Shown here piece after piece: positions 11,376-59,551 of a stretch of 64,000 nt of DNA. Positions within the stretch are counted from its first letter, which is position 1. The number at the start of each line of letters is the position of its first letter. The stretch lies in assembly GCA_001662655.1 (NCBI GenBank), contig KV460237.1; one strand, written 5' to 3'. The position numbers and the translations under genes are program-made. The stretch is from Pseudogymnoascus verrucosus. Its lineage: Eukaryota. The notes beneath the pieces are model-generated. The model made no database searches and had not been told where the DNA came from. It saw only the letters and a program-made list of their open reading frames with translations.

Positions 11376-14300
11376 TTACGCTGAGTTTTTGAATATTGAG
11401 TTCAAGCTTTTACGGTTAATATAGAAGCTTAAAACTTGACCGTTACGAAACCCAATACCCAATTGATCGCCTATGGCATCATGACATTGTACCTCGAAAT
11501 CTAACGGTAAACGAAATATAGGCATCGCTCCATAGTAAATCCACTGATTATCTACCCAGAGATTTTCTAACGACTCGAAGCCAAAGCTTTGCCTATTTGC
11601 AAGGATGCTTTCGATCTTGATCTGACCGAGATTTGTTATGAGGTGTCGGCCGTTTGCGGAGAATTTTAGAGAGAAGACAGGCTTTGAGGTCTTGATTTCC
11701 CGCCATGCACGGTGCCTGAGATGACTACCTAGAGTGCTACCAAGCAATTTTGAGACCTTTAAAGCTTTGGTAACGTCCCACAGCTTGATGGTGTTGTCAT
11801 CAGACCCTGTGGCGATCTGCTTGCCGTCTGGCGAGAAGGCTACAGCCTCGACCCAGTCCGAGTGGCCTGCGAGCGTCTTCTGGAGGCCGCCTGTGCTAGC
11901 ATCCCATAGCTTGATGGTGTTGTCCGCGGACCCTGAGGCGATGTGCTTACCGTCTGGCGAGAAGGCTATAGCTGCTACTAAACCTAAGTGGCCTACAAGC
12001 GTCCTCTGGAGGCCGCCTGTGCTAGCATCCCATAGCTTAATGGTGTTGTCCCCAGACCCTGTAGCGATCTGCTTACTGTCTGGTGAGAAGGCTATAGCTG
12101 CCACTAAGCCTGAGTGACCTACGAGCGTCTTCTGGAGGCTGCCTGTGCTAGCATCCCATAGCTTAATGGTGTTGTCATTAGACCCTGTAGCGATCTGCTT
12201 GCCATCTAGTGAGAAGGCTATAGCCTCAACCCAGCCTAAGTGGCCTACAAGCGTCTTCTGGAGGCTGCCTGTACTAGCGTCCCATAGCTTAATAGTGCTG
12301 TCTTCAGACCCTGAGGCGATGNNNNNNNNNNNNNNNNNNNNNNNNNNNNNNNNNNNNNNNNNNNNNNNNNNNNNNNNNNNNNNNNNNNNNNNNNNNNNNN
12401 NNNNNNNNNNNNNNNNNNNNNNNNNNNNNNNNNNNNNNNNNNNNNNNNNNNNNNNNNNNNNNNNNNNNNNNNNNNNNNNNNNNNNNNNNNNNNNNNNNNN
12501 NNNNNNNNNNNNNNNNNNNNNNNNNNNNNNNNNNNNNNNNNNNNNNNGCCGCCTATGCTAGCGCTAGCATTCCACAGCTTAATGGTGTTGTCATTAGACC
12601 CTGTAGCGATCTGCTTGCCATCTAGTGAGAAGGCTATAGTTCTAACCCAGCCTAAGTGGCCTACAAGCGTCTTCTGGAGGCTGCCTGTGCTAGCATCCCA
12701 TAGCTTGATAGTGTTGTCCCTAGACCCTGAAGCGATGTGCTTACTGTCTGGCGAGAAGGCTATAGCCTCAACCCAGTCTAAGTGGCCTACGAGCGTCTTC
12801 TGGAGGCTGCCTATGCTAGCATCCCATAGCTTAATAGTATTGTCCCAAGACCCTGAGGCAATGTGCTTGCCGTCTAGCGAGAAGGCTATAGCCTTAACTA
12901 AGTCTAAGTGGCCTACAAGTGTCTTCTGGAGGCTGCCTGTACTAGCATCCCATAGCTTAATAGTGTTGTCCCCAGACCCTGAGGCGATGTGCTTACCGTC
13001 TAGTGAGAAGGCTATAGCCCCTACTAAACCTAAGTGGCTCGCGAGCGTCTTCTGGAGGCTGCCTGTGCTAGCATCCCATAGTTTGATGGTGTTGTCCCTA
13101 GACCCTGAGGCGATGTGCTTGCCGTCTGGCGAGAAGGCTACAGCCTCGACCCAGCCCAAGTGGCCTGCGAGTGTCTGGATTAGAGAAGCCCACGAGTCTT
13201 CCACTTGGGGGAGCGTTCCTAACCACATAGGAAGCTTGTCTAGGTTGTTTGTCCTTACTACACTTGTTCGAGGGCTGAAGACTATCGCAGAGCTATAAAT
13301 TTGTAATGGCCAAGTTGCTATTGTCAGGTAGTGTCGCAACAAGAAACGTGTAGCATCTTGCACAAGATTCGATAGCGAAGGGTTTTTTTTTATCTAGACG
13401 AGACTTCAGTCAGATAATGACATTGGAAATTGATGTCTATTACGCACCACGTCTGTAAATGTACTTAATGTCTCAATAGCGCTTGGGAGCCTATCCAATA
13501 AACTCAGGCATTCTAGCCACTCTAATAACCTTGTGCGGAGGAATGTACTAGCCTCCCCTTGCTCAGCGAGAGCATTTTGTACCAGCGTGGTTCGCTTGAC
13601 GCACTCCATGTGCTGAACCCAGAAGGTAGCTGTATAGTCCACGCTAATCAAGAGTGCATTCGTTTTCATCGATTCCCTAGTTGAATCAGGTCGCGACAGA
13701 TCAGCAAGATTTATCTTGAGTCGTTTGGTTAAATGGGAGAGACAATTAAGCGCAATCTCACCATGCCCATAATGTTCATAGGAGTTGAATATAGATTGTC
13801 CATCCCTTCCAGCCAGGAAATCTCGAGCCGATTGATGAACAAATTCGATGTCTGTTCCTCGTCTCTTGACAAATGAAGCACATCGATCAACCCACACTTC
13901 AATAGCAACCAATTGTTTAGACAGACCTGTCACGCTACCCACCTCTTCCACATTCAGAGGTCGATAGGCCAGCATCATTGCCTTGAGGAGTCGCATACAT
14001 CCCTTGACAACGGCTGACTCGCCTTCATTAAGCTGATTGAATACCCGACGATAAAAATCAGGCAGATCTGGCGGCAAATCTTGAATTGTGGTCAAAACCT
14101 TGTCCCGGTGTACGCTCTCGAGTCTCCTGCATACTAAGCTTACCCACAACATTGTGTCCTCAGCCTTTGCAGCAAGCTCAGTCTCTACCTTCTGCCGCAA
14201 TGTTGGTCCATAATGGTGGCGACGGTCGAGTTCAATTGCTTTTGAAGCGATGAAAGTCTTTACAACTTCAGAAAGTTGTTTTTGGTTGAGCTCTAAGCTG

Positions 14301-15674
14301 ATCCCTACCTGATCAGATCCAGCTAACAACTCTCGCTCAGCGCTATCCAATGGTCGACTAGTCAGCAGCCATTTGATTTTGGAGGGTTGATCGAGCCCTG
14401 TTCGGACAATAAGCTTTAGAAAATCTGCCATGCCATCATCTTGGCACTCATCAAGAGCATCCACGATCACGTACACTCTCGGGCACTTGCATCGGCTTAG
14501 CATCTCTAAAAAGATGTTCCAGAGCGTTCGCCACGACGTAACATCCTCATCAAAACGTTCGTTTGTAGTATCCCAACGGCGTCGCAAAGACTCTTTGAGA
14601 TCCTTTTGCTGAGTAACTAATTGCAGAATCAGGCCCTTAATGATTGCTTCAAGGGTTTTAAGCTCATAATCGGCCTCTTGACAGAAGAAATAGGTCACCA
14701 CGGTAGATTCATCTTGTGGACGTGAAAGTCGCTCAATAAGGCCAATCGAGATCATAGTCTTTCCTTTGCCCGCGCCGCCCTTGATCCAGAGTAAACATAC
14801 ATCCTCTCCATCCTTCCAACTAATATATCTAGGGTCTTGAAGAATCCAGTCGATGGATTTAGGGAGCAACTTGTCCTTATTCTCTTTCAGCCGATTTTTG
14901 ACAGCTAGCGTATCAGGGCATCGCAGAGACCGGAGACAAGATCGATCTATATCATCGGGAGTTGTAATTTTATGATTATTAACTACAACATTTGTTAACT
15001 ACAAAACCCTTGTACAAGGACTATGACATTGGCATACCAATATGATTGGTTCCATTGTACTGATTGCCTGGGCCGTTGAGCTGATTGCCAGGACCATTAA
15101 TGTACTGATTCCCCCCCCCCAAGTGAACGTTTTGGGCGCCACTTCCATAGTGTGCGTATGCAGGCGTCTGCTCAAAGCCGTCAGGTAAAGAAGGCTCCAT
15201 CTTAGTCACCTCCTCGATGGCCGTTGCCAGCTGGTCTTTGCCTCTTGATGTCGTTACTTCTGGAAACCTCGTTGCTAAGAGTTGCAAGTCGTCTAAAATC
15301 CTCCCAACCAGACTCTCCACACGACCGCCTTCGCCAATCGTCCGAGCAGCTTTCATATATCGGTCCCACCTTGAGTCACCCTCTCCTGGCATGACCTTTT
15401 CAAACAACTCTTGAAGTTGTATAGCTTGAACTTTACAATCCTCTAAAGTAGGTGTAAACGCAGCCTTTATCGACTCGTCCGTCTCGTTATTAACGTATTC
15501 TTCCGCATGTTCGAGGAGTTTTAAGATAAGAGGGAGTTTCGTTGCCGACTTTTTGAAATTTGTTGGGAGGCCAACTTCGTCTTCGACAGCCTCGTAAACT
15601 TTTTTGGTGGCATCAATGATTGAAATGATTGCTGAGATGGTGCCAAGGACAAGACCTGCTTCAGCGCCGGACAT
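11376..15674 (-). CDS. Fungal NLR: SesA (HeLo-like) domain, sigma-type amyloid motif, NACHT, high-identity WD40 repeats (HET-E-like); introns 14983-15037 and 13394-13447
   Basis: MSGAEAGLVLG...GLP...LPL...MEPSLPD N-terminal domain; P-loop GGAGKGKT; Walker B VIVDALDEC; FVHQSARDFL; PLQIYSSA; GH..WV..[VI]AFS.DG..IASGS.DNTIKLWD repeats. Both introns restore the frame. Confidence 0.92.
11775..13165 (-). repeat. Array of at least 10 near-identical 126-bp WD40 units; true number unknown because of the gap
   Basis: 126-nt periodicity on both sides of the N run. Confidence 0.95.
12322..12547. other. Assembly gap inside the WD40 array
   Basis: Run of N. Confidence 1.
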
Positions 15675-15925
15675 GATTTATCGAAGCTGGAATAAGTCAG
15701 AAGTGTATGCAGCAAATTGAAAGTCTTCCTCACAGGGTTGTCAACAAATGGTAAGCAGATAATGAGTGCGGAGTAGTATTGAATGAGGGGATGTTGACAC
15801 AGTAATGAGACTGGAATGATGAATGAGATTGAGGTTCAGCCTCATAAAACGGCTGGGGTGTCGCGCTAAAATGCTACCCCGCTCCAAGGGTTAGCGCGAC
15901 GGCCCGTGGCTTAACCAGAGTTCTA

Positions 15926-16104
15926 CAGTAGAACCCCTGTTATAACGATGGCAGTTTAGCCGATAATCATGTATATAACGATATTTTTTAAGGTGACGAA
16001 TTAGGCGTTTTTGTATGGTGTTACGCTACCGTTATACCGATATTTCAATTATAACGATACTTAGGTCTGGTTAAATTTACATCGCTATAACAGGGGCTCT
16101 ACTG
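15926..16104. mobile_element. 179-bp MITE of the Tc1/mariner-pogo superfamily
   Basis: 25-bp TIRs CAGTAGAACCCCTGTTATAACGATG / CATCGCTATAACAGGGGCTCTACTG (2 mismatches), TA on both sides, internal TATAACGAT-like repeats. Confidence 0.92.
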
Positions 16105-16581
16105 TACCATTAATCATCCGTGGGGCTGTCGATTTGTGGCACCTGCCAGTGCCATACGTTTACGGGTTTTTCCGGCTCCGGAATGCTCCCTTGGCTTGCT
16201 TGGCCAGTGCTGTGGCTTGAAATTAACCAAGCCACAATCAGAGGATGTATGTTTATTCCATGTGGGCAACTGATATGGTGACCATAGTCGGCACAGAAAA
16301 CTTCGGGCCTGGCTTCTTCCAACATTTATTATGAATAGTGTGCCTAGTACAGTATACCAAATTTTATTACGAAATTTTAGCTGGAAGAAAACATCATTCC
16401 ACTCCGTAACTACCGAGTCTGCCTCCCTACCTAGAAAACAATCCTGCTCTTGACACTAGACGAATAAGTTGGTCGAATGGCATAATGTGCCGTGTGGCAA
16501 TAACCACAACCCTTAAATATTGGCAGGTGGATTTGTCCCCTTTTACCTCGTTCACTCCTTCCCATGCAAGACATACGTTGC

Positions 16582-37099: not shown

Positions 37100-37440
37100 A
37101 TATCTCTCCATCCCAGCCCCGCATATGTGGGTTCATAACTCCACGCGATACCCCGCGGTTCGGAGAGAGCTGCCGTCATGCAATGTCAGAACTCTCCTAC
37201 TCGAATAGTTAGTTTCGACAGCAAAAAGAGGGGAAAAAGCTGTCTTGACCATTTACACGCTGCTATACTGATATCTCTCCATCCCAGCCCCGCAGAACTG
37301 GGTTCAGAACACCACGCGATACCCCGCGGTTCGGAGAGATATGCCGTCATGCAATGTCAGACCTTCCCTACTCGAATAGCTAATTTCGGCCAAAAGCGGG
37401 GGAAAGCTGTTTAGACCATTTACACACCTGCTATGTTGAT
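37100..37440. repeat. Direct tandem duplication of a ~171-bp promoter segment
   Basis: Units start ATATCTCTCCATCCCAGCCCCGCA at 37100 and 37271 and align over their whole length. Confidence 0.92.
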
Positions 37441-40529: not shown

Positions 40530-41125
40530 CCACTCCAAGCCCTCTAACTTATACTTCTATATGCTATTTATTATAAGTAGTACCTTATGTCCTTATAAGA
40601 GTAAGCTAATCTTTAGGAGTAAGGGCTTTCTATATAAGGATATAGAGTACTATATTATAAGAAGTAGTATATAGAAGTATAAGTTAGATAGGAGTTAGTA
40701 TAATTCTATAGGTCTACTACAAAGGATATAAAAAAGATAAAGAAGAAATAGGAACCTATTATAGTAGCTCCCCCTTAGTATCTGAAATAGGTCTAACTCT
40801 ACTAGGTTATATATTATAAAACTATACTACTCTACTTCTATAGTATATAACTCTATAACAGCTCTAAGTCCTAATCCTATAAGTACCCCCTAGGGGAGGC
40901 ATCCTTATATTCTATCCTATTATAGTAGATATTAAAAAAAAAACACAAAGTTGTAGACAGAGGACCTTAAAATATAAAGGTAGGAGACTGGCCCTTTATA
41001 CCATTTCCCTAGCTTAGCTATACTCAGCTTCCTTACCTATCTAGCTTACCCTACTTACCTTGCTCACCTTACTTACCCTACTCACCTTACTCACTATGCT
41101 TACCTACTTACCTAGCTCACCTACG
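40530..41125. repeat. AT-rich, TpA-saturated RIP relic ending in CTTAC/CTCAC tandem repeats
   Basis: Very high TA content with CA/TG/CG depletion; original element not identifiable. Confidence 0.75.
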
Positions 41126-51450: not shown

Positions 51451-51857
51451 ATGTCCCAACCAATCACCGAAATCGTCCAATTCAAACTCCAACCCAACGC
51501 CTCCATCGAAGACCAAATGCCCGAATTCACCCGCCTCCTGCAGCGCCAACCCGGCTTCCTGCATCTCGCCTGGGGACGTAGGGTTGAGTCCCCGGACAAC
51601 GTCCAGATGCTCATAAGTACCTCCCCCCTCCTTCTGAGCTGAGGTCCGGGCCTCGTGTAACGTGCCGAATTGTGTGACTAACTCTCTGGCCAGATTGGGA
51701 TACCATCGAGTCGCACCATCAGTTTGAGAAGTCGGGAGCCGATTATGCGGCCTTAGGGGTGATTGTGAAGTCGCTGGTTGCGGAACCACCGGTGGTGTAT
51801 CATGTTAATTTCAAGTCTGATAATGGGTTGGTGATCCAGAGCACTTCGGCTACTTAG
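51451..51857 (+). CDS. Small dimeric alpha/beta-barrel (ABM-like) protein; intron 51617-51693
   Basis: PITEIV...QPGF...WGRRVESP...LI[N]WDTIESH pattern; the splice keeps the frame. Confidence 0.72.
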
Positions 51858-52115
51858 GTGTGGTGTTGTGGATTGTTGTACTGGTGTTCTACTACTGCCA
51901 GTACCTGAGAAAGGATAGGGGTTAAGGGGATCGCAGAAGGTTGTCAGCGGGGGAGCTGGAGGGAGAAAAGAAATAGGGGGATAGCAGGTTTTAGTCCGCT
52001 CTGATTGCACAAGGCAATGACATCTGCAACCTCAAACCAAAAAAATGATGGCTCTAAGTTGAAGATCAATCTCTATCAAATCTATTCCACTACACCCCCA
52101 CCAACCCACCACCCC

Positions 52116-52604
52116 CTACGCCTTCCTAATCCTAATAACCACCTCCTTCTTTCCAATCGCCGTCGTAGCCCCCCCAAACGCCAACGGCCCCGACGCGCAA
52201 TGACTAACAATCCATCTCGCCGAGATCCCCACATCATTACAGGGCACCGATGCGGTCCCGCCCATAAGCCCATTATACCCCGTGATCGCCACATCTCCCT
52301 TCGTCACGAAGACGACGCTTTCTTGCCCGACGACGCAGGGCGTGTTGCCGAGAGAGATTAGGTAGTTTATTCCCAAAAGGATGTTGGCGCGGGTTAGTTG
52401 GACGGTGTCGCAGGTGTTTAGGTCGGTGAAGGTGGTGGGGGTGTTGGGGGTGGTGAGATTGAGAGATTCGAGGCTGGGAGGGTTGGGGGTGGTGAGATTG
52501 AGAGATTCGAGGCTGGGAGGGTTGGTGGAGTCTGCTGAGAGGGCGGTGGTGAAGGTTGTGGTAAAAACGAGGAGGGCAAAAGGGAGGGTGGATAATCTGG
52601 TCAT
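52116..52604 (-). CDS. Small secreted Cys-containing protein, possibly KP4/Ecp2-like
   Basis: Signal peptide, duplicated NPPSLESLNLTTP, and C...INYL..LG..PC.V...C.DV...A..I..HC...GG core. Confidence 0.7.
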   Translation of the reverse strand: MTRLSTLPFALLVFTTTFTTALSADSTNPPSLESLNLTTPNPPSLESLNLTTPNTPTTFTDLNTCDTVQLTRANILLGINYLISLGNTPCVVGQESVVFVTKGDVAITGYNGLMGGTASVPCNDVGISARWIVSHCASGPLAFGGATTAIGKKEVVIRIRKA

Positions 52605-53945
52605 TTTTAGAGTGAAGCTCGAGTTGTTGTAGGGGTCGTTTTAAGATAGTTTGGGTATGGAGTTTGGAGTTTTTGGAAAGAGCACTGGTTGTATAAAGTT
52701 GGATATAAGTCTGGGAGAACAGCTGCAAGCAGTATTCGGCTTTATGAGGTTGATAACATGATAATGAGAGCTCCTCAAAAAGATCTTCTTCTCGCATCTC
52801 GCATCTCAGGAGAGAACTTTATATAAGACGATTCTGGAGAAAGGTTGCACAAAGACTGCAAATTTTATTATTGCTCAACCAACATCTCTACTTGTGAAAT
52901 TCTTAAAACACTGTCTGGTGGCACAGTAGGACCTCCGCATACAAATATAACCGAGGCTTGATATCAGCAAGAGTAGTTGAGGTATTCTAACTTCCTGGTA
53001 TTGTAGGGGAGTTCATAGCTACTGTGGCAATAGGGCCATGTAGCTCGAAAAGTGTCCAGCATCGAGGGGTGTTCGTAGGTTGAGCGGTGGTGTTCGTGAA
53101 TGAGGAACTAACAGAGCAGTGTTACTCACACCACATATATGCAGTGAAAATATGGCCCAGGCCAATGGAATTATGGCCATTTGTCTTCCCTAACTTATAA
53201 TCAACATTGCTGTTTGACAGGTCTCAGCCCTCATTCTCGTTCTGTTGTCGTTCCTTTTGCCCCGTTGTTTCTGACAATCACCATGTGGGTTCACCTATCA
53301 ACCCCCCGCACATTGTTGTGGAGAATGAAGAAGATCTACCCTGTCGAATATACACCTGAGATCAACCACTGGCACATTGGTTCTCAAGGAATGCAGTAAT
53401 AGCACCGTTGAGACCAGTGAGGTTGCACAAGAATCGCGCGAACGAGGGAGTGAGGACCGCATCATCACTATCTCCAATCCCCAACTCTCGTCCTTACGTA
53501 CAACCAACCTCCTTGCCTAAGCACTCCCGTCTCATCCGCGATCCTAATCCTCCGAGTTGATTAGTAAGGAAGTAAACGCCCTTTTGAAGACAACCAAAGA
53601 CAGACGTCCGCGCCGGCGGAACCTTATTTTAACGGGTCCATTTACAAATCCTTGGCAGGTCCTACTTGTGTCCTCGCGCGAAGCTAGCCCGAAGAAGCAA
53701 CTTTTGCTTTCCTATATTCAGTGGTTCAGGCTTCAAGATGTTCTGTTTTAGCGCGCAATCGAGAGTTAGGTGTTATTGCGCGTTTTTGCAGTTCGGTGGG
53801 AATAAAGCGAATAGTTAGTAAGTCATACGCTTTGTTAGCAATTATATATCATAAACTGAGAAGCTGGCATAATTATTGGTTCGAAGACCAACAAGGTAGC
53901 AGATAATATAAGAAAGCTGCTCCGTGCAGCTCTTGGCCTCTCATA

Positions 53946-56900
53946 ACGTGCATCCCTGCATTGAGGGACGCACCCCATGACAGGACAAATATTAGTACTT
54001 TGAATTTAATTGATTCTAAATTTGTAAGTCCATTGAAAATTCTAGTATTTTTGTGTCAGTCATGTTGTGTGACCACCTCCTAAATAGCCCAAACCCTAGC
54101 TACTCTGAAATTTACGATCACGTCGTCGCCGTCGCGCCTAGTTGCGGAGGGCGTCAATTTGAAGTATAATAGGACCCCTCGATCTACAGCACCACCCGAG
54201 CTCGTTGCACCTTTCAAACTCATATAACACTTTGATGTGGGTTTCCGAGCCTCACCACAATGCTGAAAAATCATTTTCAGCCTTGTGGTGACTAGGGAGT
54301 ACCCTGTCTTCAAGTAGTCGAGATGATGCTTGGGGACGCACACTGGCCCCCGATTGTCTGCTGGGCAAAGGCACCGCTATTTAGGAGCAGCAGGGAGCAG
54401 CACACGGCTTGGAGAGTGATAAGTAGCATTGTCAAGTGTATGTCACTTGATGGTACTATATTGATATAATGTTGCCCTAGTTTGATGACACACAATACTA
54501 CCAAGACAAGATGGGGGGATAGGAATGGTTTATATTGCGCATTATCGCCTTTCCCTGATATAGCCTGTATTGCTGTGAATCTATCTCCGAAGGGTAAGAC
54601 GGAGAGATGGAAAACTGGATTTGGGGAACCTATCAATAGGAATGGTGCACGGATCGGATCGTCCCGGTTGATTTGACAAGCTTACAAAGTAGTGACGACA
54701 AATAGACCAACAAATAAGCTGAAAACTACGATAGGAGCGCACGCCTGAGATGTTAACCAACGTTTCCTGACGGCGATATATTGAAGAGCGCACATAGAAA
54801 CCATTTGAATAGCAGAAAATAATTATACGCCGCGTGAGTCATCCGGATGAAGTCGAGGGAAGCTTTGGACCCCAAGCCGCGGCGTAGCACAGCGATCTTG
54901 CCGCATATATATCTCAATCGTGAGGCCGTATGAGTTGTCTTACAAACAGAAACTAGCCATGTCAACGATAATGGAGGACTCTAATGCCGGAGATATGGCG
55001 AATCATGAATACCCCCGCGACAAAACGCGGCCTATGCACATTCTCCATCTTCCAATGGATATCCTCCTTAGTATTTTCGACCACGTCCACAATGATAGAA
55101 ACATAAAATTGCACATTCGCCGCGATGACCACGACATCAAAACCATTCAAAGCGCTCGTCTTGTCTGTACTCTCTTCAACCGCCTTGGATCGCCGTTTCT
55201 ATGCCCAATCCTCACGGTGCAACTAGATCAGGCATCCCTTGACTGCGCAGATAAGATTTCAAGGGCACCGCTCATTGCAGCGGGGGTCCGCAGCATTGAT
55301 GTCGTGCTCCACTACTGCCCGAAAGAACTTGCAGAGGACCTGTCACGGTACAAAAACCAGCGGGAGAATGACCTAAATTCACTGAGCAGTAGCTGTGACT
55401 ACCAGGCTGAGACGTGGTATCTAGGTGGACACGATCCCGATGATGAGACGGTGTGTGAACAGCCTCTAAGGGTGTATAATAAGGCGATGGCAGATTACAG
55501 CGCTATTATCTCAGCGTGGGATGAGTATATTGGCCAGCCGGATGTGGCTTCGACGGACGAGGATACGCTTAAGTATCAGGAGATCCTCCGGCAGGGTCAC
55601 GAAGAGTATAAGCAGAAGCACAAAGAGCAGTTTAGACTGATCATGGACGGGTCTTTCGTTGAGACCTTGGCGTTGGCGATATCCCGGATGAGACATGGCA
55701 CTTCTTTACATTTCGTCGACGAAATAGGTGGCTGGGATTACCTGAACCGATGTTCAGACGACCCAACTCGTATGTCAACCCACCCAGACGAGCTGCCCCG
55801 ACTTATGGCCATTCCGTTGGACTGGCGGACAATTGAAAATCTTGAAGGAGGGGCAGAACTCTTACCCGCGAAAATCCTTTCTGAGCTACCAATCGCCATC
55901 CACAAAGCAGGCGCAACCGTCCTCGACATACTAATCCGTTGCTTCCCGACCGTAAAAAATTACTCCATGATTCGCCCTAGCCATGACCCAAATAACCCCT
56001 CCTGGCCAGACCTCCGCTCTGCAAGCCAGCACCTCACGGAATTCTTTTTAAGTACAAACCAACCGCCGATCCGCGACCGCCATCTCCGACCCGAGGAGCA
56101 CTGCCCCATCGACCAGTACCTCTGCGCTATTCTCTCTGGGCATGACATCGAAGACGTACGCCTCTATTTCCACGGATCAAATGTTAACGACGGCGGCTTG
56201 TATCGCATAGGTACCATCCTTGCCACCGCTAATTGGCCGCGCCTTAAGCGATTCTCTATCTCGGACGTCTCGTTAGACCCGGGCAAGCTAGAAAATTTCT
56301 TCCGCAAGCTGGATGGTAGCAGGATGGAGCGAGTCTACCTGCGCAATGTGGAGTTGCTGGATGGGAACTGGGCAGGGGCGCTGGATCTACTACGCGAGAG
56401 GGTGGCGTCAAGGTGCCTGGATGGAAAATGTGAAGTCGAAATTAGTAAGCTTAAAGGGGGGGGGTTTGGAAAAGGGATATTAACAAAAAACAACTCTTCG
56501 CTTTGGTTCAGTGGTGAGGAGTCAGATGAGGAGGAAGATGAGGGGGAGAAGCTCATTGCGCAGGCGCAAAGTTATGTCTCGGGCGCTAGATTACAGCACC
56601 CGCTAAGGGTTGAGTAATGCTAGACCGTACAGCCGCCACAAGGCTGATGACGATCTCCTGCATCGTAGTGGGGCCTTAAAGCTTAGATAAGACTCTCTTA
56701 TGGGTATTAGGAGTGATAAGAGTTCGTGGTGATGCTGTAGCTCGAGGGGTTCTATTATGCTTCGAATTGATGCCCTCCGTAATCAGGCGCAACAGCGACG
56801 ACGTGATCGTAAATTTTAGAGTAGCCGGGGTTTGGACTGTTTAGGAGTAGCCACACAACACGACTGACACAAAAATACTAGAATTTTCAATGGACTCACA

Positions 56901-56978
56901 AATTTAGAATCAATTGAATTCAAAGTACTAGTAGCTTGTCCCGTCACAGGGTGCGTCCTGTGATGCAGGGATTCACGT
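53946..56978. mobile_element. Non-autonomous cargo-carrying TIR element (ACGT termini, TA target duplication), TIRs ~343 bp
   Basis: 53946-54288 is the imperfect reverse complement of 56636-56978; TA|ACGTGCATCCCTGCAT ... ATGCAGGGATTCACGT|TA. Confidence 0.88.
54959..56617 (+). CDS. Intronless F-box-like protein with LRR-like C-terminus (cargo of the TIR element)
   Basis: ILHLPMDILLSIFDHV...IQSARLVCTLFNRLGSPFL; WPRLKRFSI...VYLRNVELLDGNWAGALDLLR. Confidence 0.8.
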   Translation: MSTIMEDSNAGDMANHEYPRDKTRPMHILHLPMDILLSIFDHVHNDRNIKLHIRRDDHDIKTIQSARLVCTLFNRLGSPFLCPILTVQLDQASLDCADKISRAPLIAAGVRSIDVVLHYCPKELAEDLSRYKNQRENDLNSLSSSCDYQAETWYLGGHDPDDETVCEQPLRVYNKAMADYSAIISAWDEYIGQPDVASTDEDTLKYQEILRQGHEEYKQKHKEQFRLIMDGSFVETLALAISRMRHGTSLHFVDEIGGWDYLNRCSDDPTRMSTHPDELPRLMAIPLDWRTIENLEGGAELLPAKILSELPIAIHKAGATVLDILIRCFPTVKNYSMIRPSHDPNNPSWPDLRSASQHLTEFFLSTNQPPIRDRHLRPEEHCPIDQYLCAILSGHDIEDVRLYFHGSNVNDGGLYRIGTILATANWPRLKRFSISDVSLDPGKLENFFRKLDGSRMERVYLRNVELLDGNWAGALDLLRERVASRCLDGKCEVEISKLKGGGFGKGILTKNNSSLWFSGEESDEEEDEGEKLIAQAQSYVSGARLQHPLRVE

Positions 56979-57036
56979 TAATCTTCCGACGATTTTGCAT
57001 GTTGATATGAGTACAAATACCTCCAAATACATCAAC

Positions 57037-57754
57037 ATGGCCGGTAGCCCCTCCGAATTCCCCTTCGACAACAGCTTCTTCACAGATATCCCCAACACTC
57101 CTTCCCTATCTCCCAACACAACCCCCTCCCATCAGCAACCCCACTACCCCAAATTCCCACTCACAGAACCCCTCCCGCCGCCAGCGCCGCACCATGAAAC
57201 CCGCCTGCTTCGAATCCTCCACCACTGGCTCATCCTTCCAGGACGCCTTTCATAGACCCATCTCAGTATGCATACACCCCTTCCTTCTTTCCCATCCGTC
57301 CCCTCCTCCCCATCCAAAAATAAACACTAACCACCCATTAGCAACGTCGCAAATCCCAAACCGCACCTCCCAACGCGCCTTCCGCCAACGCCGGACTGAG
57401 CGCCTCCTCGCTCTCCAGTCCCGCGTCGCAGGTCTCGAAAAGCAAGTCGACGCGGCGAAAGTGGTGAATCGGCTATTAGCACAGATGACCTGTTTGCGAG
57501 CTCTCGGAGAGACGGAGGTGGATGAGGTGGCTGGGGAACCGCCTTCTTGTGATGAGGGGACGGGGTTTCAGACGTGTGATTTGACGTTGTTGGGACAGGG
57601 GTTGGGAAGGGGGTATTGGGATGCGTTTGCAGGCAGGGAAGGAGAATTTGAGGCGGATGATAGGGTGGATTGGCAGACGGGGGGGTTGGGCGAGGGGGCG
57701 CTTTCGGAGGCGTCGCTGTTTGGGCGGGTGCTGGATGGGGCGGGGTGGGCGTGA
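57037..57754 (+). pseudogene. bZIP (Yap/AP-1-like) gene with apparent frameshifts
   Basis: After the intron, QRRKSQ and NRTSQRAFRQRR...LQSRVAGLE are one base out of frame (CCCAAACCGC at ~57355-57364); the upstream part also switches frame. Confidence 0.6.
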
Positions 57755-57952
57755 GTGACGGCATTGGAGGGGTTGGTTTTTGATTGATGTTTGGATTGCG
57801 TTGGAGTCTGGCGTGGGTAAAAAGCACGAGACTGAAGACCCTGGTGGTGATAAAGGATTTGATTTAATATTTAAAGTAGATGTTGATCTCATATAAGCTT
57901 ATATAGCCATACTTACTTAACCTACTTTCCAACGCATCAGCCATACTGGCCA

Positions 57953-59551
57953 TTACTTAGCAGCTTCCAACGCCTGCACCAAACTCCCCATCAAAGCCAG
58001 TCCCCCACTTTGAGTCTCCACCGTCCTGCCCCTACCATTATCATTGGGGTCCGCCGCCGCCGCATTTTCAACCGGGCTCATTCCTTGCTCTGACACAAGC
58101 GGGTTGCTCGACAGGCGCCACACCTTGTTCAGCGGGATACCTTTATTCCTCACATCCGCAGCCCCCGAAGGCTGCACAGGCGCGCTCTTAGCATTTGATG
58201 CAACCGCTGCTGCCCCAGCATTCCACCAACCGCCATACTTTCCATCAGCATTGCGCGTGCTATATGCCGCTTGCGCATTATGCAGGATCCACGGCTGATA
58301 CCCGTTGCAGACCTCCTGGTGAGCCTGGGCCTGCGCATCTGTGCCGTTGAAGATAACAGTCTCCTTCTTGCTGAGCGCGATCGGCTGGCAGAACAGTGTA
58401 AGGTGATGGAAGAAGATGCCCTTGAAGTTCTGGCCGTCCTGGCTGCAGGTGCTGTCGGCATCGCAGGTTTCTTGTAGGATACCGTTGCTGCCGAGGCCGG
58501 ACCAGGTGTTTGTTTGCTGGGTTGGGGATACCCAACCTGTAGCCGCGATAACGTCCTTTATGAGGGTGTAGCCGTCAGAGAGATAGTCTGTGCTGCCTGT
58601 TGCATCCCATAGGCCGCGGAGTCCCGAGAGGATGACGCCTTGGTTGTAGGTGTAGACGCTTTCGTCTCGTGAATCGCATTTCCCGGTCCCGATGTTGTCT
58701 GGGCTGGTCCAACCAGTGATGTGAAACCCATCTGTATACAGCCCCTGTGAGTTCTTCATGTTGCTCGTTGAGAGCCATTTGTACTCTTCGATGGCAGCAT
58801 TAAGGTACCTCTCGTCGTGTGCTGGTATTGGGAGTAGTGCCTCCGAAGGGTCGTAGGCTTTCCCAGGCTCTGAGTAAGGGCTTGGATTGTCGTCTCCTGG
58901 GGAATAAAGATACATGGAAATGCTCGCCGAGAGGTAAAGCTCGTTGGTGATGGCGTTTTTATACGGCGTGAGTGTATCAGTCCAGACCATCCCGCCACCG
59001 CACAACTTGGTGTCGTATCCCTTCGAAGCCAGATCCCAGAAAATACGAGAACGATGAGCAAAGTCTCCAATATGTTGCTGACCGTCGAATGTCGAGTCAA
59101 TAGTGGAGTATACATTGATGAATTTGATGGCTTCCAACCATTCCAGAACTACCCATTCCTGATCGTCGAATTTCTGTGTTTGCAGCGATTCCACATTCTC
59201 GCCACCGTAAAAGGAAACAATTTGAGAGAAATATTTGGTGATATCATCGCTGTAGGTACCTGCATCATACATGGCCATTTCAGTCAGGGCTGCAGAGACG
59301 TGCGTGCTGGTTACCGCTGACGTCCAGTCAATCCCAGTTGGCCAAGTATTGGAGCTCCAATATTGAGACTGCATAACATCGAGGGTATTGACCATGGCTG
59401 AAAATGCTTCTCCAAGGGTCTCTAGGTCTCGAGACACGAGATTTGTCCCTCCATTTCTAAAATTGGGATCGAAAGGTTGAGGGAGCGCCAACGCTGTGTC
59501 AAGCACGACAACGAGTGGGATAATTAATGACAATCTTCCTAGACGAGGCAT
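57953..59551 (-). CDS. Secreted glycoside hydrolase family 76 (alpha-1,6-mannanase-like)
   Basis: Signal peptide, IDWT, FDDQEW catalytic DD, CGGGMVW, YKNAITNEL, YTYNQGVILSG, FKGIF. Confidence 0.92.
   Translation of the reverse strand: MPRLGRLSLIIPLVVVLDTALALPQPFDPNFRNGGTNLVSRDLETLGEAFSAMVNTLDVMQSQYWSSNTWPTGIDWTSAVTSTHVSAALTEMAMYDAGTYSDDITKYFSQIVSFYGGENVESLQTQKFDDQEWVVLEWLEAIKFINVYSTIDSTFDGQQHIGDFAHRSRIFWDLASKGYDTKLCGGGMVWTDTLTPYKNAITNELYLSASISMYLYSPGDDNPSPYSEPGKAYDPSEALLPIPAHDERYLNAAIEEYKWLSTSNMKNSQGLYTDGFHITGWTSPDNIGTGKCDSRDESVYTYNQGVILSGLRGLWDATGSTDYLSDGYTLIKDVIAATGWVSPTQQTNTWSGLGSNGILQETCDADSTCSQDGQNFKGIFFHHLTLFCQPIALSKKETVIFNGTDAQAQAHQEVCNGYQPWILHNAQAAYSTRNADGKYGGWWNAGAAAVASNAKSAPVQPSGAADVRNKGIPLNKVWRLSSNPLVSEQGMSPVENAAAADPNDNGRGRTVETQSGGLALMGSLVQALEAAK

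Follow-up and report, generated by a model that had tools for sequence, protein, structure and literature searches.

We have analyzed a 3,033-bp segment (positions 53946..56978) of a 64-kb stretch of fungal DNA, hereafter the window, in which an F-box-like gene lies between long inverted arms. The segment is very probably a non-autonomous transposon that carries a gene and belongs to a long-armed subgroup of the Fot elements (pogo, DD35D), which move by cut and paste. This reading is based on the sequence of the tips, a long conserved arm, pairs of such arms around unrelated interiors, copies of autonomous type, and an orthologous site that lacks the arms. The window corresponds to G000:C32:62001-126000, where G000 is the 30-Mb fungal assembly that we have searched and C-numbers denote its contigs; the closest named relatives of the window proteins are from Pseudogymnoascus. 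An initial annotation had proposed a non-autonomous transposon with terminal inverted repeats (TIRs) that moves a host-type gene. The proposal is supported by arm pairs with other cargo, by a transposase-bearing relative on contig C46, and by the site in a related run, X5.

Both arms open TA/ACGTG, where the slash marks the element boundary, so that the TA/ACGT ends noted initially are present at both termini, and both close at CCACAAGGCTGA. Each is 343 nt in length (53946-54288 and 56636-56978), and in reverse-complement alignment 277 of 345 columns match (80%), with 226 of 262 columns matching in the outer 260 nt versus 51 of 83 in the inner part. The alignment confirms the described arrangement of arms that are close outside and looser inside, with a shared inner end. 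It requires the small correction that a profile of the arm family extends both arms slightly inward, to 53946-54310 and 56624-56978. The second-longest inverted pair within the window measures 38 nt. The right arm (56636) begins 18 nt past the stop codon of the cargo, and the 552-codon open reading frame (ORF, 54959-56617) is unbroken, as had been stated. No transposase is encoded in the element, its single ORF being of another kind. The features of the element and its borders are as follows.

53944..53945: left TA, presumed target-site duplication (tip letters)
53946..54310, plus strand: left arm, type A over its whole length, inner end truncated relative to the ~480-nt full family arm (alignment, arm profile, trees)
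54252..54291: near-perfect hairpin of 40 nt at the left arm's inner end (DNA fold of -19.8 kcal/mol)
54311..54958, plus strand: single-copy non-coding 5′ region that travels with the cargo (genome match, runs)
54959..56617, plus strand: cargo, an intronless 552-codon ORF (ORF, family, fold model)
56624..56978, minus strand: right arm, mosaic, outer part type A and inner part B-like as in the left arm of the C35 element (arm trees)
56979..56980: right TA, presumed target-site duplication (tip letters)
57037..57754, plus strand: bZIP gene of the host flank, inferred model (bZIP_1, E = 8.5e-6; homology to run X5 resumes at 57047)

The outer ~45 nt of the left arm look like an ordinary Fot tip together with two imperfect direct repeats, which have a putative binding role. 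The hairpin in the same arm has a fold z-score of -7.1, and none of 200 shuffled sequences reached -19.8 kcal/mol; its palindrome recurs in one other arm (L027:6833-6872).

An arm family with many cargoes and a transposase

Searching the genome gave 22 matches to the left arm, 27 to the right arm and 20 to a second arm type, B. Thirty-nine stretches were fetched and scanned with a profile built from 19 arms. The full family arm is ~480 nt long, and TA adjoins 28 of the 30 intact arm tips, against a background of 5%. Eleven pairs of arms face inward, spanning 2.0-7.9 kb; eight have both tips recognizable and three have one damaged end. Other arm pairs with different cargo, which the initial annotation had proposed to seek, are therefore present, ten in addition to that of the window. 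The interiors are as follows.

Window element: F-box-like gene
C26:8153-14177: broken NACHT-ankyrin NOD-like receptor (NLR) gene
C26:3448-7299: 749-codon ORF, the 5′ part of that C26 NLR followed in frame by unrelated sequence
C90: jacalin lectin
C35: ankyrin fragment
C37: chromate transporter
C57: two ORFs, with a faint DnaJ match
C26:111617-115815: fungal rhodopsin-type G protein-coupled receptor
C7: SesA-TPR NLR
C41: HET gene and transposase remnant
C46:254444-262385: intact transposase and Patatin-TPR NLR

The C46 element is a 7.9-kb pair with 487-nt arms that are 93% identical, arranged in the order arm, transposase, Patatin-TPR NLR cargo, arm. The transposase is an intact ORF of 571 amino acids with HTH_Tnp_Tc5 and DDE_1 domains and the triad D162/D273/D309 (DD35D). 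Of 76 transposase matches in the genome, none but this one is an intact member of the clade; the other close matches are fragments at 57-75%, and most of the remainder are ~30% identical. Ordinary Fot copies of the same genome (three were checked) are 1.85 kb in length with TIRs of ~60 nt. Relatives of the C46 enzyme at 59-71% occur in Leotiomycetes and Dothideomycetes (Lachnellula, Rutstroemia, Alternaria, Bipolaris, Curvularia, Exserohilum and Pyrenophora). On C41 a shortened arm is joined to the last third (C terminus) of a transposase, followed by the HET cargo, and this element appears to be an internal-deletion derivative. A transposase fragment at 57% lies 5 kb from the C37 arm; it was not counted, having no second arm within 18 kb.

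The same arms occur outside this genome. The arm profile was applied to metagenome loci comprising the best 80 of 169 relatives of the C46 transposase, and matched 29 of the 80, with no match in reversed controls. Twenty-two matches, in 21 loci, span at least 340 profile positions, and TA adjoins 26 of the 29 tips. Seven loci enclose at least 3 kb between the transposase and an inward-facing arm, and three of these seven cargoes are NLRs; the Pfam scan took in 40 of 123 ORFs.

L074: NACHT-WD40 NLR, both arms, 8.0 kb
L126: NACHT-WD40 NLR, both arms, 5.9 kb, transposase truncated
L095: HET-NACHT-WD40 NLR
L085: no Pfam match among the ORFs scanned, both arms, 7.8 kb
L134, L144 and L070: no Pfam match among the ORFs scanned

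L074, L085 and L126 are complete units of arm, transposase, cargo and arm. In four other loci the gap from transposase to arm is only 0.6-1.6 kb, showing that plain elements exist too. L097, L102 and L142 have a left arm and transposase followed by an NLR or HET gene, with no right arm in view, and were not counted. Fourteen loci that include the transposase start and more than 700 nt upstream gave no arm match, so long arms are not established for the clade as a whole.

Several further arrangements of arms were observed. At L051:8425-8622 (G000:C33, ~294,920-295,120) three arm tips, each with TA, follow one another head to tail, which gives the impression of repeated insertion by the family into its own ends. 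A type-B arm is nested inside the type-A element carrying the NACHT-ankyrin gene (L027:6209-6596), and comes with a short piece matching the DNA directly after the C46 transposase. L122:2569-3440 is an 870-bp miniature form of the family, two arms with almost no interior. At L055:1731-3014 (G000:C83) a partial arm adjoins a gene with KP4 killer-toxin-like domains, with no partner arm in the stretch fetched. Two intact type-A tips at G000:C37:73772 (plus strand) and C37:142396 (minus strand) face each other across 68.6 kb, possibly delimiting a large composite unit. L054 (G000:C105:1-9900) is a nest of a second long-armed family with ends TA/ACGTAG and arms of 421-516 nt at 98.5-99.8%; within it are pieces of transposase resembling the C46 enzyme at 61-65% and a remnant of an NLR-type N terminus, and it has no match to the arm profile. 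The joint arm-tip pattern had no matches in viral contigs.

Movement of the unit and history of its arms

We compared window positions 51500-59500 with four related runs (X2, X18, X5 and X19), leaving out runs with small word shares. In X2 and X18 contigs of the flanks continue into each of the arms, and the interior shows ~99% identity, placing the element at the same site. X19 was too shallow and broken to call. In X5 a single 44.7-kb contig bridges the site, and the interval corresponding to window positions 53171-57047 is 908 nt there versus 3,876 in the window. Hence ~2,970 nt are absent; a clean empty site is predicted to give 841 nt, leaving a surplus of 67 nt, and at other joints of the same contig the deviation from the window reaches 76 nt.

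The cargo is nevertheless present in X5, on a separate contig of 2,441 nt that ends inside both arms. Its depth is 132 versus 118 for the host contig. Over the ORF region it has 24 differences from the window in 1,962 nt (~98.7% identity), and six over the 5′ non-coding sequence 54271-54692 (~98.6%). The flanking GH76 gene, however, shows 98 differences in 1,548 nt (93.7%), and the non-coding flanks fail to align at the 85% limit. All three of X2, X18 and X5 have 35 nt extra at 54692, and the X5 cargo contig has a 22-nt insertion of its own near 54644. On the basis of this private insertion, the matching depth and the lack of a second high-identity flank contig in X5, contamination or a mixed sample was rejected as its source. 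The arms and gene are absent together from the X5 site and present together elsewhere. The unit has moved, since X5 lacks both here yet has the cargo at another place. A relative having the gene at this locus without the arms, which the initial annotation had regarded as contrary to its proposal, was not found; X5 has neither. As the X5 cargo is far more alike than the host genes, the simplest reading is that it was shared by transfer between lineages or by introgression, more recently than the divergence of the host genes.

The history of the arms was examined using separate trees for the outer 230 nt and for positions 255-350, the inner tree being made without two short arms and with one added. 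In the outer region both window arms fall within the type-A clade (support 100/100). In the inner region the left arm stays in type A (99/98), whereas the right arm falls outside A, together with the C35 left arm (100/98). The right arm thus combines two arm types as a mosaic, and the same A/B mosaic is found on elements with other cargo. The left window arm is 91% identical to the arm of another element versus 88% to its own partner, the two C46 arms do not differ over the inner half but are 87% identical outside it, and elements C26a and C26b share an arm plus 735 nt before they diverge. The disagreement of the outer and inner trees, together with the half-identical C46 arms, indicates that arms recombine or convert among copies.

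This bears on the earlier argument that diverged arms around an unbroken ORF suggest selection on the cargo. The outer parts of the window arms have diverged by 12-14%, as against ~1% (X2, X18) and ~1.3% (X5) for the element. The mismatch is far above the 1% age of the insertion, and with the mosaic right arm this means that it is older than the insertion. It provides no clock for time under selection, and the argument fails. We rejected repeat-induced point mutation (RIP) as the cause of the mismatch, with transitions running both ways and TpA/ApT ratios of 0.77 and 0.96; some other arms of the family do show a C>T and G>A bias.

Some of our results weigh against identifying the element as a member of a mobile family. 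It is single-copy in this genome. No close parental copy of the cargo is present, the paralogues having 54% and 41% amino-acid identity, and neither has arms within the 9.9 kb fetched around each. Seventeen of the fetched loci have a partnerless arm, seven of which were searched out to ~17-19 kb. No transposase with type-A arms was found among the 76 genome matches. The expectation of an autonomous partner is borne out to the extent that C46 is a transposase-bearing relative with homologous arms, but those arms are type B, with 55-58% identity to the outer 250 nt of the window arms, and because of this the C46 copy is a relative rather than a proven mobilizer. The empty site is seen in one of the four runs, X5, and its junction is known by length and not base by base, so that a single TA is not established. 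Lastly, 85 of the 88 NLR-like loci counted below lie outside paired arms.

Might two independent insertions of arm-like repeats simply happen to flank a resident F-box gene? The window arms are not each other's closest relatives, unpaired arms are common and arm-free paralogues exist, as that would lead one to expect. Each arm, however, has one TA/ACGT tip, and so does not form a separate element with two ends; the same layout recurs in ten other pairs; and the idea is largely refuted by X5, in which arms and gene are missing together here while the gene and inner arm parts are found elsewhere. We consider such a coincidence exceedingly unlikely. In a different course of events, the first insertion here would have been an arm-bounded element with another content, into which the F-box cargo later came by homologous recombination between the long arms (cassette exchange), never having been moved by transposase. 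The mosaic arms, their recurrence with other cargo, the C46 arms and the common segment of C26a and C26b would all fit. Yet X2 and X18 have the cargo here and X5 has the same cargo with inner arm parts at another site, i.e., the unit in two places, and no allele with other cargo was seen at the site among the four runs; this course is improbable. Alternatively the element could be ancestral at this site and have been excised or deleted in the X5 lineage, with strong conservation keeping the cargo alike. Only one run lacks the element, and four runs do not polarize the direction of change. Conservation on this scale would have to extend to the 5′ non-coding part, ~98.6% identical in X5 beside flanks below 85% and a coding neighbor at 93.7%, and the cargo, with a ratio of nonsynonymous to synonymous substitution (dN/dS) of 0.42 against its paralogue, gives no indication of extreme constraint. 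An ancestral element is accordingly very unlikely.

For the Fot-type transposon that we favor, a mechanism can be proposed. The family transposase, acting in trans, would bind the ACGT tips, excise everything between them and insert it at TA. Cargo could enter through gap repair or template switching where excision has left a break, or when long arms of different copies recombine with one another; such recombination would also account for the mosaic arms. The transposase gene would then be lost by internal deletion, the C41 copy representing such an intermediate. In the present case the unit would have inserted just upstream of the bZIP gene before the split from X2 and X18, and been shared with the X5 lineage by horizontal transfer or introgression after the host genes had diverged.

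The cargo gene and its surroundings

The cargo had been called F-box-like. This holds for its family, of which 27 of 57 aligned members match PF12937 in an N-terminal F-box at E = 0.01 or better; for the cargo protein alone the match is weak and under the cut-off (E = 0.04). The 57 were drawn from 67 homologues of patchy distribution (Pseudogymnoascus, Cadophora, Aspergillus, Podospora, Coniochaeta and Clonostachys). The structure model has a pLDDT of 83, and its top Foldseek matches are F-box/leucine-rich repeat (LRR) proteins, D3/MAX2 first, at weak scores (E = 1.7e-4 and up, TM 0.17-0.33). Atlas neighbors belong to ascomycete F-box clusters, and the cluster of the cargo has four members that are 93-99% identical. 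The protein is probably a degenerate N-terminal F-box followed by an alpha/beta LRR-like solenoid, in a patchy family of the Pezizomycotina. It resembles D3/MAX2, TIR1, COI1 and FBXL2 as top structural matches and in the N-terminal F-box of its family, but with TM-scores of 0.17-0.33 and 10-14% identity no ligand or substrate can be deduced. From its fold and family the protein would probably act as an SCF substrate adaptor.

The dN/dS of 0.42, measured against the closer paralogue, points to purifying selection on the cargo family rather than within the element in particular. No RIP signature was seen in the cargo, and none of the 80 metagenome transposase loci has a match to its protein. The 648 nt of non-coding DNA between the left arm and the ORF probably contain the cargo promoter, and the right arm may supply the 3′ end of the transcript, because it begins a few bases past the stop codon. 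The element ends 58 nt before the likely start codon of the bZIP gene, and its neighbors include genes for isoleucyl-tRNA synthetase, kinesin and syntaxin.

Relation to known elements and to NLR genes

Fot TIRs are given as 40-60 bp, or ~100 bp in FotC, and total lengths as 1.2-5.2 kb (Gao et al., 2020, PMC7386202); in the same part of that survey TIRs of 392-856 bp appear only in insect pogo elements. DD35D transposases have been placed with Fot1 (Dupeyron et al., 2020, PMC7325037). The present family resembles Fot in its TAACGT ends (TAA/CGT in the reading of Gao et al.), in DD35D, and in the HTH_Tnp_Tc5 and DDE_1 domains of the C46 partner. It departs from published Fot in TIR length and in transposase-only content, having arms of 343-487 nt, elements of up to 8 kb, and host-type genes. 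Four 11-nt tip motifs of the arm family are absent among the table S1 motifs listed by Gao et al. (PMC7386202). That survey took only 2 kb of flank (PMC7386202), so a far arm would be missed, which suggests that surveys of this kind may have undercounted large Fot elements. In the openly readable literature we found no Fot clade described as having long arms and carrying cargo, although these arms may already be present in a repeat library. A 183-bp miniature element in the window (15924-16106) has 38-nt inverted ends, TA/CAGTAG, like the Lemi-type pogo ends in the table of Gao et al. (PMC7386202).

Pack-TIRs have been described for animals and Pack-MULEs for plants, with gap filling or template switching and chimeric genes (Tan et al., 2021, PMC8277862). 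The window element shares with them a TIR pair around non-transposase, host-type sequence and movement of arms plus cargo as a unit (in one of four runs). It differs in its fungal host, its whole-ORF cargo, autonomous copies that also carry cargo, and a leaning to NLR and HET genes, and no parental copy is identifiable, the paralogues being too distant (54% and 41%). By its sequence the element would thus work like a Pack-type Fot transposon, but outside the published range of Fot TIR lengths and without a parental copy.

The closest fungal precedent appears to be ToxTA (formerly ToxhAT) of wheat pathogens, a single 14-kb element with 74-bp TIRs and TA duplication, the mobilizing transposase of which is given as not known in the parts cited (PMC12506042, PMC6737239). 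Like the window element it is non-autonomous, TIR-bounded and flanked by TA, with intact cargo genes that include a Patatin-TPR NLR, and it has moved within and between species (PMC12506042, PMC6737239). Compared by description and not by end sequence, the present elements form a family whose cargoes are many, whose arms are five times as long, and for which there is a candidate clade of transposases. Starships have an average length of 110 kb and a DUF3435 tyrosine recombinase, and NLR and patatin genes are often found in them (Gluck-Thaler et al., 2022, PMC9156397). They are likewise fungal carriers of NLR and patatin genes, but the elements here are 2-8 kb, DDE-type and bounded by long inverted arms, and the window element lies among core genes with no DUF3435 captain.

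The association with NLRs was assessed by two domain searches, which gave at least 88 NLR-like loci in the genome (63 NPHP3_N and 25 TPR_12 clusters, some of the TPR loci not being NLRs). Three lie inside the 37.7 kb of paired interiors, where 0.11 would be expected (Poisson P = 2e-4, assuming even spacing). This enrichment is no more than suggestive, because NLRs and transposons both cluster. With 85 of the loci outside paired arms, the family is a minor NLR carrier in this genome. A NACHT-WD40 NLR is encoded in the window at 11771-14857 (minus strand), with seven 126-nt repeats and split over several ORFs; no arm is near.

Fungal NLRs show fast turnover, occasional translocation and proximity to transposons, and a study of Podospora (2026, PMC13449251) reports NLR translocation near transposons. 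It suggests ectopic recombination or direct mobilization, and in the part cited names only Starships as carriers. The long-armed family offers a defined vehicle, with recognizable arms, a specific DD35D clade and complete elements of ~8 kb holding transposase and NLR, so that one can test directly whether an ordinary cut-and-paste transposon captures genes and transfers them across species. Tentatively, and with somewhat less than even confidence, we suggest that this widespread Fot clade with ~480-nt arms may act to shuttle, as small cassettes, the genes by which fungi recognize non-self (NLRs, HET genes, lectins and F-box proteins), the transposase moving the cassette within and between species and the arms recombining to swap cargo and fuse domains. 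If so, the clade would parallel Starships in a compact form, would directly cause ascomycete NLRs to relocate and turn over, and would be a candidate class of mobilizer for ToxTA-like elements.

Two other features of the window were observed. A small ORF at 52116-52604 (minus strand) has a signal-peptide-like start and a tandem 13-residue repeat with no Pfam match, and is one repeat unit short in X2 and X18. The regions 37100-37425 and 40543-40688 comprise a direct repeat of 118 nt (90% identity) and a 34-nt inverted pair, rich in AT, the latter resembling a decayed element.

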